A DNA stretch of 64,000 bases, taken from positions 995,895 through 1,059,894 of the forward strand of contig MU004244.1 of NCBI GenBank assembly GCA_010405405.1, written 5' to 3'. Of the stretch, positions 17,501 through 28,152 are shown one piece after another. Position 1 is the stretch's first letter; the number at the start of each line of letters is the position of its first letter. The translations under genes and the position numbers were made by a program. This stretch comes from Microthyrium microscopicum (lineage: Eukaryota). The notes beneath the pieces were generated by a model. The model saw only the letters and a program-made list of their open reading frames with translations, made no database searches and had not been told where the DNA came from.

Positions 17501-18183
17501 AGAAAAGCATGCTCTATTAGTTTTTGCTTATTCCTATTGAAGAGATTTACATATTTCTCGTTGACATTGTGTGTTTGTTCATGTTTTCTTAGTTCTATAT
17601 CTCCCCCCTCGTGTACTAGTTTGGATGCCTGGCATGTGCTTGGTGGGCGTGTGCGTGGTGTCTTGGAGTACTTCGTTTTCAACAGAGCTCCAGATGGCAT
17701 TGTGGCTTAGTTCTGATGCCGTTGGACTATTGAAAAGTCTTTCATTCCTGTGGAGTAGTGGTTTGGGTGGTTCTCGCTTCCTAGCTTGGCAGAGGATGGA
17801 GGGTCTGCGCAGATTGGTATTATGTGATATGATTGTACAAGTTTGGGTCGTCTACTTGGTAGTTATCGTAAATTCAAGGCTTTAATCATTGTAATCCATT
17901 CCTCCTCTACTGTTCTACTCGATCCTATTACCTTCCTCGCCATCTTTAACCTGCCTGACCTCCTCTCATCCAGGGCGAGCAGAGCCTCAAGAGATAGAGT
18001 ATCTCAACCTACACGACGATCGAAAAGTCAACACCAAAACCAAGCTTCTGAAAAGCCAATAACCTTCCAACTCTAACAATTGCCGCTAGTTCCTCGCCAC
18101 AAGAAAATACATCTCCTTCCCTAGGAACATACCTATCAACCGAGATATTCACCCACCACAGACAGGAAATAAGATCAAAAACA

Positions 18184-18570
18184 TACCAATCTCCGTCCAC
18201 ACCACATCCGTGCCTCAGAGTAAACCCCAGAACAAGAAAAGGGCGAGCCGCAAGGGCCCGGCATGGCTGGTGCGGCAAAAGTAATATATTCACATCAACT
18301 AGCTTGCTTTGCCCTTGCATGACCATCAGGCTCGCTACCGTAATGAACCTTGCCTACGGAGTCCGGGCGGAAAGAAAATGTACACTCACTAGTAGTACTT
18401 AGTGATCACGAACGCCGGTTTGTGCTACAGACGGTTTTGCTGAGGAGATACACAACTTCCAGACGGTTCAGAGCTTCGTGAATGCCGAGGGTGGAACAAT
18501 GTTCCTCCCAACGCGTGGTTGGCAGTGTTATGGGGACGCGGTGAAGCTGAAGAGGAGGCACGGAATGGTT
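18184..18570 (-). ncRNA. Candidate structured non-coding RNA (unassigned family)
   Basis: TATATATAA at 18633-18625 (minus) followed by a CT-rich tract. A 10-bp end-closing stem (18207-18216/18555-18564) encloses several nested stems. No credible ORF. Confidence 0.5.
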
Positions 18571-19564
18571 AATGAGCTACCCGTAACCGTGCGAGTGTGC
18601 GAGGGTAGAGAGGGTCTCCATGGGTTATATATACTGGTACTGAAGCTTCTAGAAACAATGGTGTATCTAACAGGGGACTAGCGATGCGCACAGTGTACAC
18701 TTGGGAGGGATGGTTAAGTAATATTATAGAACTGTTATGTTCCGCTTTCTATTCGCTGCTTGATGCTAGTTCTAAATGCTCCAAGTAGCAAGTGCTACTT
18801 CCGCACATCATTGGCAATCATACATTACTAGACTGCTCGCGATCGTCGTTGGCTCAATTCTGTTCTGTGCGACCACACTTTCACAGACGCCGTTGCAGAC
18901 AATTGTGTGCGACGAGCGTTGAGGCCGTATGCTCCGTGAATGAAGACGATATTTTGCAAGTAAAAGACGGACCAGATGAGTGTCTGTGAGCTCGGAGAAC
19001 AACGGGATATCAGAACGAGCGTGCAGGCTGGCCATGTGCAGTGAGTGAACTCTTCCCATTCCTATTTTTGTCTCGTCGACACAGGAAAAAAGGGGTGCAG
19101 TGTCAATATCGCTAGCAGAGTTTTCTGATAGTGTTGTTCGCAACACTTTCTAGGATGTGCCACACGGATTTGGTGTGACGGGACAGTTTGCGTTCCTCCG
19201 GCGCAAAAGTGAAGATTTGAATTGCGTTATCAACCTGGTTCGTAATATAATGTTACGGCGCTTTGGCCAGGAGATATGACATGGGAATGACATGACGCCT
19301 TGTATGCCATCGAGATACGAGAAGGAATTTTTGAATTTTTGGGGTGCTACCCGGTAGAAGGAGCCGAATGCGTTACGCGAGTTGGTGGATTGATGTATTG
19401 TGATCACCTGGTTTATATCATGAGGCGAACTACTCAAGTGCTCTGGCTGGGGATTTCCTCGTTTTATGTCGTTATCAAGGTCTGTGTGATAAAGGTGTGC
19501 TGCATATAACGAGCACATTCTTCATTACTTTCGCCTTTACAGAATTTGCGGTCCTGGAAACAGA

Positions 19565-20288
19565 TCATAGTTGAGTAGTGTCGTAGCCAGGCTTGTTGAC
19601 GGTGAGCATGTCCGCTGTCGACGATCGCTTGCTCGCCTTTCCTTGTGGTGCTTTTCCCTGCGGCGAGCCGTCAATCTCCGCTTTGTAGGGGTTTGTGGTG
19701 ACTGTGGTGGTTGACTTTCCCATGAAGGGTTCTTTGCTTTCGCTGACATGAACTTCTCCTGTGCTCTTGTCTTCCACGCGTTCATAGAATTTAGAAGTAT
19801 CGCTTTGGAAGCTGGATTGGAACTGAATCCTCTTCTCATTCGTCATTGTGTAATACGTTTGTTGAGTACAGGTAATGTTGAAGGATGAAGACCTTGCAAG
19901 ATCTAGGTTGGCTTAAGACTGCCATGTGAAGTCGATCACCCAGTGTCGTCATCAACTTCCATGTGGTGGCGCCAGAAACCTTGCTTCGCCTGTCCATTTT
20001 AGGAAGTATGTTGCATATCAGGAGTATGAGGAGTAAGGTACATCGTACTATGACTTCAAGAGCCTCATGAACTAATAAAAGAAAACCATTGAATTCTGCA
20101 AATATAAGATAAAAAGATATCGATCGTGTACGGAGAATCCAGCTCCGTTCACCTGTATCAGCCAGGATATTCGCAATAGACACAAAATCCAAAGCCATGG
20201 ATACAACTGCTATAAGCAACCACGAACTACTGATAAAGTATACAAGTACGACATTTTGACGGTCTGTGGTCCAGAAAATTTCTGGTAC
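19565..20288 (-). CDS. Possible 3' exons of a hypothetical membrane protein (may be degenerate)
   Basis: Hydrophobic segments (VVLVYFISSSWLLIAVVSMALDFV; VIVRCTLLLILLICNIL), intron-like signals and a charged C-terminal ORF at 19846-19565. No clean full model was found. Confidence 0.3.
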
Positions 20289-23200
20289 CTGCAGTACACG
20301 ACGAGTCCTGGTCGTCGATCAATTAATGTCTACCTTATTTCCAAATCTAACCAATTTCAAGCCTCTATGTAGAGGCGTGTGGGTGCAATTTTCTCTCCAT
20401 GGCATTGCCTGATTTGCCACTATTTCAGGTGTTTCCGTGCCAGAATAGGAAATGGTACTCATCATCATCTTGGCAAATTGTTTGTGCGTGTGGTATCGTG
20501 AAGTTCTACCAGGTAGCCATGAGTGAGCTGTGGTCGCTCTGCAGAAGTGCGTTGATAGATCGCGATGCGATATGAACTAATGGCATTGCGAGCTTTGGAT
20601 GCGTGCGTATGCGGATGACACGTTTAGTACCATGTATAAACTGGAAAGGAACGGTTTTGTGTGAAGCTTGCGTCTTTGACTATGGTTTTTTTGTGCGCTC
20701 AAATAGTGAAGAAATACCTAGTGTCCAAAGTCTCAGATAGTCATATAGAACAGTTACCTAAGCTTGAAATGTATTATCTTCTAGATTCGTCATTTCTTTC
20801 CTCGTTGGATGAGGCACATCTTAGCATCAAGTCCTGTACTTGGATATGTTTATGAAAGTGAAGGATCCAGTGGAAGATAACACAGACCACTGGAAATATT
20901 GACACCAATTTACCCGGCAAGCCATTCCGGATTGGGCGGGAAAGGAGCCTATTTTGTAGCAATTACCTTACCAAAATATCAACATGCCCGTGTCGAATCA
21001 CTCTTACAAGGTCCCATTGAAGAAATGGTCTGCTTAGAGAGTCAGACTACCTGGGTTATTGACAAATGATATAGTCCTCACGACTGATGTCTGGAAACGA
21101 GCGCATCAGACTGATGACTTGCATGGCCTGTGATGATAGATTAGATTGAGTCAACATATACGCCAATGGTGGCAAGAACTGTGAAAGGGCGAAAAAATCA
21201 TTGCTCCAGGTAGATCATCGTTGATCATATGAGAAACGTAAAACATTTACTGAAGGCAGGATCCTAGATGTCGACCAGTTATCAGCAATTCTAGGTGTCT
21301 TCTTTGAATAGTTTGAAGAGCATGCCATATCCGTTTCGAGCTCTCTGGATCTTTGACCAACAAGAGGTCGAGGGTATAATCCATGGCCAGGGTACGATCA
21401 GATCGAAGATAGTCCCAATTTATGCTCTGGAGGGCGGGGCTGCCACGAGGTAAGCAATAGCTTTCCCCAGACTGATTGTCGTTTTGAAACGAAAGCGATG
21501 GATGCGGGTGATGAGCTGGGCAAATCAGCACCATAGGACTCGAGTGGCGCTGTAAACATATGAAACCAACTAGGCGAGTGCTCGTCCGGGTATACAGCTT
21601 AATTGGTAACTGACAGCCCTCGCAGAAATCATAAATAGTGAGGGATGGGGTAAGTTTGGCACATGTCACAGTACAAGAAGTAAAGCCCGCATGCAGGGCA
21701 TGGCCCAGGTACAAATACTCGTGGCGCATCTGTAGATCTGTTGGCAACCTACCACGGCACTGGTGAAACACTTTCTCTAGGATGCGTGGTCGGTTTGAAC
21801 TGGCTGGAGATTGTTTGATGGTAAGGTGTACACTCTCGAAGGTCACGAGCCTTGTCGGGCCGCTGGCAAGGCTGAAGTTTTTATACTGGGAATGGCAAAG
21901 ACGCGAGAAAAAGATGTCGTAAGCAGTATGATGTGTTGCATGATGCTGTAAATTGAAGATGCTGATTTCCAGAAGCGGTGGTGGTGATCTAGACCTAGTA
22001 TCTGGAGTGGTGGGTTTATCCATGTTACAGACTGGGGCATGCACAAGGCTTCCTGGGTATAGCTGATGGATGTTATTCCTTCTGTCCGTGTGGGAAGCAC
22101 ATCAGCTTCTTTGGATATAGTGGTCCCAAGACATTGATGCCTGCACTTGATGGGCGCATGGGTAGTAGGGTCGAGTCGCAGTGTTGCTGGTTAATAGAGC
22201 CGACGCGTTAAGAGGTGGAAGGAAGAGAGAAAGAATAGAACATTGATAAGTCAAGCTTGTTAAGGAGATAATAAACTAAAGGATAGTACATAAAGCACAT
22301 AATGAAATCCTTTTGAGGGTTGGTAATGGTAGAAGAACATAGGATAGAAGTTAGGTTGGAGAAGGTTGATAACCCTTTTAAGCGAGTAACAGCCCAGCCA
22401 AAAGAAATTATATGGCGTGTATGGTAACGGCTAACAACGGCAACGATACGGAGGTAATAAACAGGCTATAAAAATCTTGCAAACTTGTCAAAGCATCAAA
22501 TGAGCGCGGTCATACTGAACTTCTGATTTGTTATGAACGCCGTAAGCTTATTGTATCAGCCTTCTTTGGTGTTTACCCCGACGGTCCATATCTTCATATC
22601 GCTGGCTTGGAGTTGTAAGCACCTCAGATGTTCAAAGGGTATATCATGCAGGTTTAAGTGTTTATTGTCGTCCAACTACTAGTACTTTCTTCAACATTTG
22701 ATGCAATGCAATCTAGTGTTTGGTGTAACCTTGCACTGGTAAAGTCTGGTATAGGCTCAAAGCTTCAAAAGCAGCACCTACCATTTACCATTACCATTTA
22801 CCGCCAATATCTCGTATCATACATGGCATCTATCGTGTAGTGAGCCCGTTCCCTGGGGTTTTGTTCTACTTGTCAATGTCACACTCTATCCGCTTTCCAT
22901 CTTTCTAACCACTCCAGACATTCTGTACTACCTATTAATTGGCCCAGTCACAGCGCCATCTTGAACTGTCTTACTCTACCTAGGGTAATCCTCTTGGATC
23001 TAGTCTCCTCTGTACATTAGACCCATCTAGCGTATTCTCTCCAAGACTCAAACTACTTGCTGGTCGGTTGATCGCTCAGAGCATGTTAGCATCTCAGCAA
23101 TTCCAGGTATTATCCCGGCTCTAATTCACCTATCCGCCGCTCCCCCAGACTCTCGCTCTCATCAAAATGTGCATCCACGCATCCATTATTATCTGCCGTT

Positions 23201-23710
23201 GCTCATCCGTCCCTGCATCCCACATCCCTTCCCTTCTTCAAGGTTGAAGGAACCCAAAGGAACCATCAAGGGCTGTCGCTGTCGCCTGCATGATTTCTGC
23301 ACCCTCTGCACCCACCACCCGCATGTTCAAAGCACCCTTTCTACTGCCGTACTCTGACTTTGTTACTACTGTGGCGTCTTGGTTTTGCTCTTGAGTCTTA
23401 GCTTCTTTGCCGGTCTTGTTTCCATTTCCAGACCTTCTCCAGACCCTCTCTATCCCCACATTTTGCTAGCTACCAGTGTCATCTCTCCGCCTGGCTTGAC
23501 TTTCAACGCCCGAGTCCGCTTCAGCTCACCCTCATATTTCCAGAAACTCTACTCCCACTTGCCAACCCTCCCGCCACTTTTTCTCTCTATTCCTGCCTCC
23601 ACCTGTTTTTACTCCACCATTTCCCCTGGCACTCAACCACCACCCGCCGCTTACCGCAGTGTCTCGTCAGTTCTCCACGCTGGACTGCTCCCGAAAGTTC
23701 TGCGCCCGCC

Positions 23711-26700
23711 ATGAGTGAAAGCGCATTCATGTCTGTGTCAGCAGACACCCCGCCGGCTAATTCTGCTGCTGCTGCTGCACAACATGCTGCGAACGCGGCG
23801 AATCCATCACATCCGAGTTTTCGCAGGTAAAACCCCTCTGAAAATCATCTATATTGAAACCACAAAAAAACTGACCGGGGCCTTGCATACAAGTAGGCAA
23901 CGAGCTTCAAGAGCCTGCGAGGTATGTTCAAACTCCATCTGCGCCTGCCTCGGCACCGAGGTCGTGCAAGAGAAAACAAGTGGGCTAACTCAACTTCAAT
24001 CCTTTAGACATGCCATGCACGAAAAGTATGCCACCCCATCCAATCCATCGCTCCAAGACTTGTCCACTCACCGTTCTTTTAGGTTCGCTGTGATGCCGCC
24101 TCTCTGGGCGTGCCATGCACGAATTGCACTGCTTTTGGTATCGAATGTCGAATCCCCACACCAAAACGCAAAAAGGCCCAGTCAAAAGCCAAAGATGGCG
24201 AGGAGTAAGTCTACGCAATGCAATGCTGCCCACTACGCGTGCTGACGGATCTTGTCTACAGTGAACAGTCCCGATCGCCTGGTACCGCCACCGAATCACC
24301 CTCTGAACTGACTCCCCGCGAGGCAGCGACTTCTATGTTTGGTCAGCTCGATGGCACGCCAACAGCCTCCATGTCAGAGGCCTATGCAACGCATCAATCA
24401 ACTCATAATGGTACATTGACACAGTTCATGAAGCCCAAGTTTGCTCGAGCTCCGATTAAAGAAGCTGGACGAGTGGCATACCTAGGCGAATCCTCCAATC
24501 TCTCGCTCCTCGTACATGATCGATATGGCGCGTCAGACGTCGTCCATTATCCATTACCAGAAAATGTTCGAGGAGCAAAGGCAAGAGTGAATGAGCTTGA
24601 TAACATGGAGATTGAGATTCTTCATCAAAGAGGAGCTTTCTTATTACCCCCACGAGCTTTATGTGACGAGCTTGTTGAGGCGTACTTCAAATGGGTCGCT
24701 CCTGTTGTCCCAGTCATCAACCGCAGTCGATTTATGCGACAGTATCGAGATCCAAAGAACCCTCCGTCACTTCTACTATTGCAAGCTATTCTCCTTGCAG
24801 GCTCTCGTGTCTGTATGAATCCACAATTGATGGACTCAAGTGGATCAACGACTCCAGCTGCAATGACATTCTACAAGCGAGCCAAGGCGTTGTTTGATGC
24901 CAATTACGAAGATGATCGTGTTACCATTGTTCAAGCCTTGCTTTTACTGGCCTGGTATTGGGAAGGACCAGAGGGTGAGTGTTTTGAAACCTAAATCGGA
25001 TCTGCACGTGTGCTGACTTTATGGTTCCAGATGTAACGAAAAATGTTTTCTACTGGACACGAGTGGCAATCGTAGTGGCACAAGGCTCGGGCATGCATAG
25101 AAGGTCGGTTTCGAAACAATCGTGATTAAGTCAAGCACTAACAACCTCGCAGCGTGGAAGGTTCGCAATTAAGCAGATCTGACAAACGACTCTGGAAACG
25201 AATCTGGTGGACGTTATTTTCGCGTGATCGATCTGTCGCTGTTGCTCTTGGTCGTCCAGTGGGCATCAACCCGGAAGACACCGATGTCGAGATGATCCAT
25301 GAAGACGATTTCATAGAAGATGAGCCGGACCGACAAGCGGAGTTCCCGCCTGATCCCATTCACGTTCGTTTTTTTATCAGCTATGTTAAGCTATGCGAAA
25401 TTATGGGATTGGTCTTGTCGCAACAATATTCTGTCGCATCAAAGCTGCAACGAACCAATGCTATGGATCTTACCCATAGTGATATGGCATTGGCAGATTG
25501 GTTTCAGCATTGCCCGAAAGAGGTTTCTTATGACAAAAACAATCACAACTTCTGGGCCGCGCTATTGCATTCGAATTACTAGTATGTTCAGTTTTTGTTC
25601 CCGAAAACACCTTGCTAACTTTACAAGCACAACGCTATGCTTACTTCATCGCGCACATATGCCACCAGCAGGATCACCACGGACTACGGCAAACGAAGAG
25701 GCTGCTTACCCCTCAAGAAACATTGCATATCAAGCTGCAGGCATGATCACATCCATTGTTGAAAACCTGCAAAATCACGGCGAACTGCGTTATACCCCGG
25801 CATTCATTGTCTATAGTCTCTTCTCGGCACTTATTATGCATGTCTATCAAATGCGCTCATCCAACAAGATCGTTGTTGCTCAGACTGAACAACGATTACA
25901 GGTCTGCATGATTGCGTTGAAAGAGGTATCAAAGGTGTGGCTTGTCGCCAAAATGGTGCACACTCTTTTCGAATCAATTCTCGGAAACAAATCATTAGAA
26001 GAGCGTCTTCAAAAGGCTGCCGGCAAACGACATAAGAAACCACACCCAATAAACGTCAAAACACAGCGAGAAGAGGCACAAAAGCGCAAGTTTGACGAAA
26101 TGGACTTGAACTTTACCAATGGCCCTCCCGCTCCACCAGTATCTTACGAACGATCCAGACCCCAAACACCAGCTCTGACACCTTCTCAGGATACTTCGCA
26201 ACCGCAAACAAATGGTAATCATCTTGTGCCACATTCTCCTCAAATGGCACGACAACAACTGGGAGATGGTTTCCCGACTGGCCAGTCGCGCGGTAACACC
26301 CGCCCAACCACGCCGTTCAATGCAAACTTTTCATACCCAGGGACACCGCCAGAGCTTTTCCTAGTGACCCGGAATTCGCCTAACATCCCGTCAGATCTAT
26401 GGCAGAATTTCCAACCGGATCAGCTATTTCCCGCAGAAACAAACCTCAGCGTGCCGTTCGTGAGCCTGTCCCCAATCCAGCAGCAAACTCTGGTAGACCC
26501 TCAACTATCAGGTGGTCCACAGCAGTCGATGATGCAGGCGACGGGTACTTCAATGAACATGCAACCCAACGGCATGATGACTACGACATTAGGCCATGAA
26601 CCAAATGCCTGGGCGCACATGGATGGATCGAATCAACAGAACAGTACTAATGACGATTCGTGGAGCAACAGTAGTAAAGGTGGTGGACCCATAGTACCAC

Positions 26701-26819
26701 AAACTCTCAATGTCGAGGACTGGTAAAGAATCTCATCGTCGTTCAAATTCACATTGGCTAATATTTTCAGGTTCAATTTCTTTGGCATTCAGGGTGAAAC
26801 TGGTCTTAGCGGTTTCTAG
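23711..26819 (+). CDS. farA: Zn2Cys6 transcription factor FarA / cutinase transcription factor 1 alpha
   Basis: Spliced zinc cluster HPSFRRQRASRACE|TCHARK|VRCDAASLGVPCTNCTAFGIEC (microexons 23897-23921 and 24008-24025). FARAPIKEAGRVAYLGESSNL, a fungal TF domain (KRIWWTLFSRDRSVAVALGRP) and C-terminal LNVEDWFNFFG. Confidence 0.92.
23948..23961. promoter_or_regulatory. Inverted pair of FarA/FarB core motifs (CCTCGG-CA-CCGAGG) in farA intron 2
   Basis: Exact sequence lies in intron 23922-24007. CCTCGG is the established FarA/FarB core element. Confidence 0.45.
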
Positions 26820-27284
26820 AGTCACCGTGACTCCAGTTCATTCCCCACGCCTAACAGAGCGATTTCACTATCCTCAATCATACGACATGATTTCGATGTT
26901 ATGGTCTTGAGGCTATATTCTCTATCCATCATACGTTTGTTCGCCATCTTGCGAGATTGGCAACTCTGGCGCTTAATTATCCTATTCCATTGGCGTAGGG
27001 AAATATCAATGATAATTGACAAATGTTACGGGCGGCATCAGAATATGACTTTTATTTTGCGTTCTTATGTTCTTCACAACATAAATAATGAAAAATCAGC
27101 GTGGAGTGGTTGAACGGCTTACTGAGGAAGGCAGAATGAGCATGAAGTAGCATCAATTGATCAGTCGATAGTACTTTATATATCAAAATATACTCTACAA
27201 ACTATCCAAAATTCACGACCTCCGAGAAACAAACAATATTCGAAATTTGCAAATAAGAACCAGAAGTGACGTATAAATCCTGAA

Positions 27285-27564
27285 AATCGATCTACCAATG
27301 AACCACCCATCCGTGCATATTTTCATAAAACGAACGACACCACGTTTTGGGAACGTTTCCAGGTACCAGGTAAATGTGGCTGAACGGCTTCCCGCAGCGG
27401 GCCGTACCTGCATGATCAGTTTTACCCCAGAAAGATGAGAGAACGAACGGCATGCATCTATCCACTTGTTTGAGATGCTTGGTAAAAAGACCGAGGCGGC
27501 CGAGGCGTTGGGATGCGCCTCGGTGCGTTGGTGAGTTTGACCGGGTTCCGGTTAGCGATCGATT
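27285..27564 (-). ncRNA. Second candidate structured non-coding RNA (unassigned family)
   Basis: Lies between convergent farA and histidine kinase genes. TATA-like element at 27685-27691 with a C/A/T-rich leader on the minus strand. Closing stem 27285-27292/27557-27564 encloses four hairpins. Confidence 0.45.
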
Positions 27565-28152
27565 AGCTGGGAAGCAAGCGAGTTCTGGTTTTAAATACTT
27601 ATGACTGGGTAGAATGAGATAGTGAGAAGGGAATGTGGGTTTTGCTTGATAATGTCGTTTTGGGTTTTGGGTGATGGCTGTTTGTATATAAGTTTTAGAG
27701 GGGGGAGGCGATGGGGATAGATACGGTGGTTAGTGGGTGAGTTAGAAATGATAGAAGAATCTCGCCAAAGAAAGCGATTTAAGGAGACAAAAGGCCAAGA
27801 ATGTTAATGGCATGCTCATCGAGTGCGATTTCTTCCATTGCATATTATGGGAAGAAGGAGCATGCGCTCTAACCCATCGACATCCTATAACCATATCATC
27901 ATACTCCTTAAAGCATAATTTAGGAAGTAAGAGAGTGTAGCAAAGGACTTTAGGATGTACGCCATTTACTTTATCCATCATTCGAAAGTCAAGGATGCAA
28001 TGTCTCAGAATATTTATATTTCATGGGCTAATCATGGCATCATACTTCTCGTAGTCTAAAACATCTACCAATGTTTAGCATCTATTCTTACCCCTTCAGG
28101 TCACGCAAAAATGCGTTCCTCGCTATATATACAATGGGCTGATGAATGATGA

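Follow-up and report, generated by a model that had tools for sequence, protein, structure and literature searches.

Short words shared by two intergenic loci of Microthyrium microscopicum, one of them apparently crossed by a spliced transcript

In the window, that is, the whole 64,000-nt stretch of Microthyrium microscopicum DNA analyzed here (on contig C15 of a genome of 37.1 Mb and 58 contigs), two loci named A and B share a set of short words on the minus strand. They had been proposed in a first-pass annotation as one RNA family, either divergent paralogues or RNAs with a common protein partner or 3'-end signal. Our results lean against this family, without refuting it. The best explanation is a chance likeness between unrelated spacers, with B being a spliced transcript, and we give it about an even chance of being correct.

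The proteins of the window are fungal by protein comparison, and of 19 contig starts scanned in the genome, 5 carry TTAGGG telomere arrays. The gene between A and B encodes a FarA/CTF1-alpha-like zinc-cluster factor. Its identity to a Pyrenophora protein is 58%, and to any listed match at most 69%, so that we take the fungus to be a filamentous ascomycete, probably a Dothideomycete, with no close relative among the sequences compared. Locus A is inside a 915-nt gap between two RNA contigs, one from an AMP-binding-enzyme gene (plus strand, contig end 17849) and the other at 18764-19883, containing a 93-codon minus-strand frame. Locus B is placed between the FarA-like gene (plus strand) and a hybrid histidine kinase gene (minus strand, contig end 28008). 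Both are probably spacers between convergent genes, for which we infer the strand of contig 18764-19883. In the chance explanation, A and B would be unrelated spacers of some 850-900 nt, each flanked by the 3' ends of two convergent genes, and their likeness would be a set of short coincidental words. The features of both loci are as follows:

18177..18610, minus strand: candidate unit of locus A, some 430 nt, lying between two transcripts that converge on it; its stability is not above that of shuffles
18625..18633, minus strand: TATA-like box of A, read directly
18408..18414, minus strand: CGTTCGT of A, which would be a donor site if 18413-18299 were an intron
18215..18232, minus strand: motif 1 of A, by pattern scan
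18184..18213, minus strand: motif 2 of A, by pattern scan
18177..18186, minus strand: donor-like GTATGT of A, overlapping a five-T run directly after the predicted helix
27283..27568, minus strand: candidate unit of locus B, which a spliced RNA contig crosses; it occupies the spacer where the FarA-like and histidine-kinase genes converge
27589..27597, minus strand: TATA-like box of B, read directly, 29 nt upstream of where the predicted closing helix begins
27416..27432, minus strand: motif 1 of B, inside the intron, its CTGA being the branch site
27293..27316, minus strand: motif 2 of B, with a run of four T after it (27286-27283)

The shared words are present where the first-pass annotation had placed them. 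On the minus strand, a pattern scan finds motif 1 at 18232-18215 in A and 27432-27416 in B, and motif 2 at 18213-18184 and 27316-27293, while CGTTCGT occurs as an exact word at 18414-18408 in A and at both 27449-27443 and 27336-27330 in B. Word order and strand agree between the two loci, and in both layouts motif 2 directly precedes a T run, at a corresponding position, an observation that runs counter to chance. On the other hand, a clear excess over chance was not obtained, since the single words are weak. TTCTGGGGT is seen twice, and 4 of 100 shuffles reach two copies; for GCACGGATG, also seen twice, 9 of 100 shuffles do. CGTTCGT is at background in the window (8 seen, 4.9 expected). ATTGGTA, with 15 copies seen against 7.1 expected (as many in 2 of 100 shuffles), is a common word here, and it is also found in the 3' ends of both neighboring mRNAs, at 17813 (plus strand) and 28066 (minus strand).

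None of 100 shuffles reaches two matches of the composite motif patterns, a test that is circular because these patterns were written from both copies. For a motif-2 pattern drawn in the same way, uniqueness is expected, and it has only two genome occurrences at one mismatch or less. By hand estimate, stretches of 430 and 290 nt have an average of about 0.45 exact 9-mers in common, and at least two in about 8 cases of 100. The joint match of A and B, taken as a pair fixed in advance and together with the nearby 7-mer and 4-mers, has a hand-estimated p of about 0.001-0.02; such an improbable pre-chosen pair is a point counter to chance. If the whole window is searched for a partner, the hand-estimated chance is near 0.05-1.

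B is transcribed on the minus strand, as an RNA contig reveals, and this is the strand that the first-pass annotation had named. Within an RNA-like sequencing run, the tenth splice joint is at 27405-27447, with CT..AC ends at cut +2. We guess this run to be RNA, as the 9 GT..AG joints that it shows in neighboring plus-strand genes suggest. The joint delimits two features:

27408..27448, minus strand: spliceosomal intron of B, 41 nt, with GTTCGT donor, CTGAT branch site and CAG acceptor
27449..27568, minus strand: exon 1 of B, with predicted GC-rich hairpins including an 8-bp stem at 27523-27500, and three CCTCGG/CCGAGG words

The support comes from one contig with 28 letters on the short side and a depth of 3.92, which is below the level at which error is warned of, and it fits all three signals exactly. 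The only window match of the intron-signal pattern is 27448-27408; with 1.16 matches expected, the sequence by itself would be no proof of the intron. With its donor, a CTRAY branch site, a YAG acceptor and removal in the RNA, this segment is a U2-type spliceosomal intron. The first CGTTCGT of B (27449-27443) overlaps the donor and the CTGA of motif 1 is the branch site, which is simply what these two words would be in the chance explanation. Since both fall in or at the intron, they are absent from the spliced RNA, and the intronic position of motif 1 counts against a shared protein-binding motif in mature RNAs.

We infer that the RNA of B is either a stand-alone transcript or read-through from the histidine-kinase gene, two forms that the contigs do not separate. 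In the former case, a small independent transcript would start about 29 nt after the TATA-like box at 27597; in the latter, the histidine-kinase gene, which lies upstream on this strand, would be transcribed beyond the 3' end of its mRNA. In both, the spliceosome would remove the 41-nt intron from a minus-strand RNA crossing B, as the one contig suggests. That RNA supports the predicted strand for B is another observation counter to chance. Locus A is uncovered by contigs of the same run, which show presence only (we did not take contig depth as an expression ranking), and no positive sign of a transcript was found for it in that run. For A, a putative intron starting at 18413 or 18389 and ending at 18299 was discarded, being at chance level (2 seen and 1.99 expected for the 18413 start), and the GTATGT of A has no canonical branch site and acceptor downstream among the 5 window pattern matches.

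The layout of a TATA box and a closing stem, also claimed for both loci, stands in part. The boxes (18633 and 27597) are there, and a helix from the start to motif 2 appears in both predicted folds. The intervals are not structured beyond shuffles: A has whole-interval z values of +0.17 and +0.58, and unspliced B has one of +0.18. The SRP RNA, the MRP RNA and the RNase P candidate of the same genome reach -2.96, -3.35 and -3.21, with no shuffle as good. The helix of B starts 29 nt from its TATA-like box, as in the SRP gene of this genome, which is counter to chance. The box of A is near-palindromic and thus gives no direction. In the chance explanation, a shared composition, C/T-rich after the TATA-like box and G/T-rich further on, would favor coincidental words and would also allow a closing helix to be drawn. 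Two more pieces of A come from the folding:

18558..18567, minus strand: strand of A pairing with motif 2 in the whole-interval fold
18177..18298, minus strand: 3' domain of A, 122 nt, a predicted local three-way junction with the hairpin block, motif 1 and motif 2

The 3' domain of A has a z of -2.09, with 8 of 200 shuffles as good (one of six pieces folded in that round), and exon 1 of B has a z of -2.1; these two sub-pieces at about -2.1 came from 13 pieces folded. At both loci an upstream strand could form a helix with GCACGGATG that contains a one-base bulge (window count 3, against 1.47 expected). In A there are two alternative strands for this motif-2 helix, 18567-18558 and 18265-18259, appearing in different folds, which indicates that such pairings are found easily; the strand 18567-18558 also has a local partner. 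The bulged pairing at both loci and the sub-domains at about -2.1 are counter to chance. The z values for whole B belong to its unspliced form.

A third block was noticed after the fact in both loci:

18242..18265, minus strand: small hairpin block of A, found after the fact and also in B
27386..27414, minus strand: hairpin block of B, resembling A 18265-18242 and spanning the intron acceptor

One G-C to C-G swap separates the two hairpins, and their pattern is unique to A and B in the genome, but it was drawn after the fact. By hand estimate, two stretches of such size should contain several cases of 12 matches in 18 positions, so the block adds little. The order of blocks is hairpin, motif 1, motif 2 in A, and motif 1, hairpin, motif 2 in B. 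Short of rearrangement, this means that one block of such size is chance; the conflict indicates either that, in which case chance does produce such blocks here, or an internal duplication in B with the first copy turned into an intron. The blocks are thus not collinear, hairpin and motif 1 having swapped places, and motif 1 is intronic in B rather than present in a mature RNA.

Models built from one locus did not find the other above background. With a sequence model of the last 85 nt of A, the motif-1 block of B was 6th of 16 non-self window hits (E 2.9), behind unrelated sites, and motif 2 of B was not listed at E<=10 in the 64-kb window. A sequence model of 175 nt of B gave 12 non-self window hits, with A absent. 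A structure model of the 122-nt 3' domain of A, in the register suiting B, listed 2 other window sites and missed B, which scored 7.9 bits (E 0.16) when the target was restricted to 601 bases. No useful register was found in an alignment of the whole intervals. Since single-sequence models cope poorly with an insertion of 90-100 nt, these misses are weak evidence that weakens the family claim without killing it. Significance against background, on which the first-pass annotation had let its proposal hang, is therefore borderline: the one-sided models miss the partner, while the pre-chosen pair is improbable by hand estimate.

The further members that the annotation had looked forward to did not appear in this genome or in public collections, by pattern and DNA searches in which no close relative was reachable. 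The genome itself was covered by patterns and by DNA searches, and the latter, run with A or B, return only the query itself at E<=10. There are 5 extra hits of the motif-1 pattern, none with motif 2; 3 extra hits of the motif-2 pattern at two mismatches, none with the other motifs; 3 extra hits of the layout pattern of A against 2 in the control, judged from the listing; and no extra hit of the hairpin-block pattern. The public collections were searched by exact patterns. Viral contigs contain neither an exact-pattern hit nor relatives of the two flanking proteins. In 596 billion bases of prokaryote genomes, 11 exact-pattern hits were found, which we take as the chance rate, with no homologue. 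Metagenomes gave 47 hits of a 19-base pattern, none containing motif 1, and none of the 47 aligned flanks resembles A or B. The two nearest (L051 and L064), read fully around the match, are unrelated to them.

We consider it possible, although doubtful, that A and B go back, as old paralogues, to a single small non-coding RNA gene that is so far undescribed. Such an RNA would start about 29 nt after the TATA box and end in the T run after ATTGGTA, in an RNA polymerase III-like manner, or, in A, be cut at the GTATGT donor. Its conserved core would consist of the closing helix and the bulged helix of CATGCCG and CGGATG carrying the small hairpin, with a variable interior, and may be a protein-binding site. 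B would have gained its spliceosomal intron, perhaps by internal duplication of the stretch before motif 2; a duplicated stretch turned intron would account for the intronic position of motif 1 in B, although this step was devised to fit the data. A published study (PMC3596301) reports that snoRNA genes of fungi have gained introns. In favor of paralogy, the three blocks occur together at only these two places in 37 Mb (by after-the-fact patterns), and an ungapped 32-nt stretch has about 21 identities between the region 18249-18218 of A and 27452-27421 of B (hand count; E 2.9). The single G-C to C-G swap in the hairpin block, the TATA spacing and T run matching the SRP gene layout, and the splicing of B on the predicted strand point the same way. 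Against it stand the one-sided models, which fail to single out the partner, the lack of a third copy or homologue in genome patterns and public collections, whole-interval z values near 0 for A and B, the two different strands that A offers for one helix (18567-18558 and 18265-18259), and the absence of a B box in either locus (28 window matches). Four T make a weak terminator, and B ends in four T only. If paralogy were true, the pair would record the birth of an intron inside an RNA gene and show directly how one can originate from exon sequence, a question that has long been open; a true family would also mean that filamentous fungi have a stand-alone structured RNA class outside Rfam. If the likeness is due to chance, one unannotated spliced transcript at B remains, and so does a lesson in method, as patterns built from both copies look genome-unique yet prove nothing.

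The words could also be cis-signals shared without common ancestry, which we find unlikely: an element for 3'-end formation or termination in the spacers of convergent genes (ATTGGTA and the T run after it), or DNA sites for binding factors. The twofold enrichment of ATTGGTA (2 of 100 shuffles) and its position 30 and 58 nt ahead of the contig ends of two neighboring mRNAs fit the former, but for most of its other copies no nearness to a 3' end was established. As for factors, we take CTGGGG to fit the CreA/Mig1 consensus SYGGRG and CCTCGG to be the FarA site. Three of the 17 CCTCGG words of the window are within 33 nt in B, adjoining the FarA-like gene, and A has one, adjoining the AMP-binding-enzyme gene; FarA and CCTCGG are named together in the literature. 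However, both words are at chance in the window (SYGGRG 194 seen, 190 expected; CCTCGG 17 and 21.5), two of the three in B are the arms of one hairpin, and the sites are behind the lipid genes rather than before them. We also take GCACGGATG to resemble a Rap1 site, and found no reason to apply this to the present fungus. The 9-mer occurs once in a paper on yeast Rap1 (PMC6510891).

That B is a small protein-coding gene, with A unrelated or a decayed copy, seems very improbable. It would begin with an ATG 9 nt before the intron, in a 67-codon spliced frame running through motif 2 to 27213, and both the splicing of the intron and the 64 open codons in exon 2 agree with it. Yet the frame has no Pfam hit, no matching frame exists in A, and such open frames are common, as 23 of at least 20 aa overlap this 600-nt stretch; the best atlas score of its 64-aa exon-2 part is 0.78, a low recognition at which a blank shows nothing firm. 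We give least credit of all to a known RNA (snoRNA, snRNA, RNase P/MRP, SRP, telomerase RNA or tRNA) disguised by introns in A, B or both. Telomerase RNAs carry CTGA before a helix and end at a donor-like GTATGT, features that A has as well. Against a known RNA, Rfam gave no hit at the gathering score in the window, and only 3 (A) and 1 (B) unrelated hits at E<=10; ARAGORN found no tRNA in the window, and the MRP gene, the SRP gene and an RNase P candidate were found elsewhere in the genome.

RNase P and MRP RNA have no Rfam match at A or B and have their genes elsewhere, and fungal SRP RNA has no RF01502 match there and has its gene on contig C8. For telomerase RNA, no TTAGGG template is near A or B (3 one-mismatch hits in the window, none in either locus), and the telomerase family search had no match anywhere, its control included. 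As box C/D snoRNAs, motif 1 has no sense-strand rRNA target and motif 2 has one one-mismatch 9-mer, at chance level. The only CTGA of B is the branch site, with no C box in B, and its TCGTTCGTT is antisense to small-subunit rRNA over the 7 letters tested (2 seen against 0.81), also with no C box. For box H/ACA snoRNAs, ANANNA and ACA words occur in both loci, and the predicted folds (B unspliced) do not show the hairpin-H-hairpin-ACA layout, whose pockets are 14-15 nt from the boxes. There is no tRNA cloverleaf, only a D-arm-like word in B by eye (27310-27291) with no T arm after it. Regarding RNA polymerase III signals, none of the 28 window matches of the B box GTTCRANNC is in A or B, whereas five- and four-T runs and the TATA spacing are present.

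No description of A or B was found by full-text searches of the literature; a match in the figures and supplements of Gao et al. or in the supplements of the Neurospora and Trichophyton small-RNA surveys is possible. According to Gao, Jones and Rivas 2021 (PMC8216456), four conserved intergenic fungal structures, 1-4, rest on covariation across many species, their function is not known, and three of them carry an H box and one hairpin. Like these, A and B are stand-alone candidate RNAs between genes in Pezizomycotina, but neither a homologue nor covariation supports them; the comparison is by description alone, so that identity with structure 2 or 3 is possible. The last 122 nt of A, a predicted three-way junction followed by the donor-like GTATGT, resemble the 3' region of Pezizomycotina telomerase RNA (Qi et al. 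2013, PMC3592445), although A lacks the TTAGGG template and has a quarter of the usual length. The SRP RNA gene of this genome (G000:C8:576698-576955; RF01502) is similar in having a TATA box about 30 nt before the RNA, paired 5' and 3' ends and a final T run; it differs in its B box, seven T and z of -2.96, whereas in A and B the B box is missing, the T runs are of five and four, and z is around 0. Finally, intron-containing non-coding RNA genes are found in filamentous ascomycetes, as snoRNA clusters (Luo et al. 2013, PMC3596301) and U3 (PMC5832005). Compared with these genes, B lacks a C box, an exonic D box, the H/ACA layout (in its predicted unspliced fold), the U3 boxes (by eye) and an Rfam match, but like them it is a transcript with no recognizable protein, a short U2-type intron and ordinary fungal splicing signals.

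Directly behind the FarA-like gene, which flanks locus B, three CCTCGG/CCGAGG words are found in the window at 27491-27523, and two further ones, mutually facing, lie at 23948-23961 in the second intron region of the gene. This word corresponds to the FarA site, and the FarA-like gene may regulate itself. The RNA contig of this gene (the RNA contigs come from one run guessed as RNA) extends 3 kb upstream without a joint (window 20787-23824), corresponding either to a very long leader or to overlapping transcripts. It covers a 265-codon minus-strand frame (21247-22044), for which no Pfam family was found.

The start of B exon 2, the part of the B transcript 3' of its intron, has a 40-nt copy with 70% identity 270 nt further on (window 27104-27145, minus strand), close to where the FarA-like transcript ends; this match is at chance level (E 1.5). 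In the histidine-kinase 3' UTR, CATTGGTAGAT followed by a T run (window 28056-28072, minus strand) closely resembles the end of B. On the side of A, the GGATG...AGATTGGTAT stretch recurs in loose form for a third time, at window 17794-17820 (plus strand), where the AMP-binding-enzyme gene has its 3' UTR. This copy forms with motif 2 of A, a stretch shared with B, an inverted repeat of 27 nt with 74% identity and a spacing of 362 nt. A 93-codon minus-strand frame (window 19565-19846), inside a 1120-nt RNA contig (18764-19883), gave no usable match in the Atlas search.

Outside the window, in stretches of the same genome designated by L-numbers, 19-bp tandem repeats adjoin the telomere arrays of contigs C9 (L011:84-197) and C11 (L013:163-397), and the following structural RNA genes, one of them a candidate, were located:

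L094:3204-7172, large-subunit rRNA gene, about 570 nt longer than the model
L094:7648-9610, small-subunit rRNA gene, about 130 nt longer than the model
L091:1495-1925 (G000:C14:440374-440792), plus strand, candidate nuclear RNase P RNA
L043:1501-1972 (G000:C15:964846-965317), plus strand, RNase MRP RNA

No intron families at gathering score were reported for the two rRNA genes. At 27.3 bits, the RNase P RNA candidate falls slightly short of the 28 bits that Rfam requires; it has a folding z of -3.21 and a donor-like GTATGT about 25 nt after it. The RNase MRP RNA gene lies 31 kb before the window and, at 472 nt, its RNA is far longer than the 266-position model.
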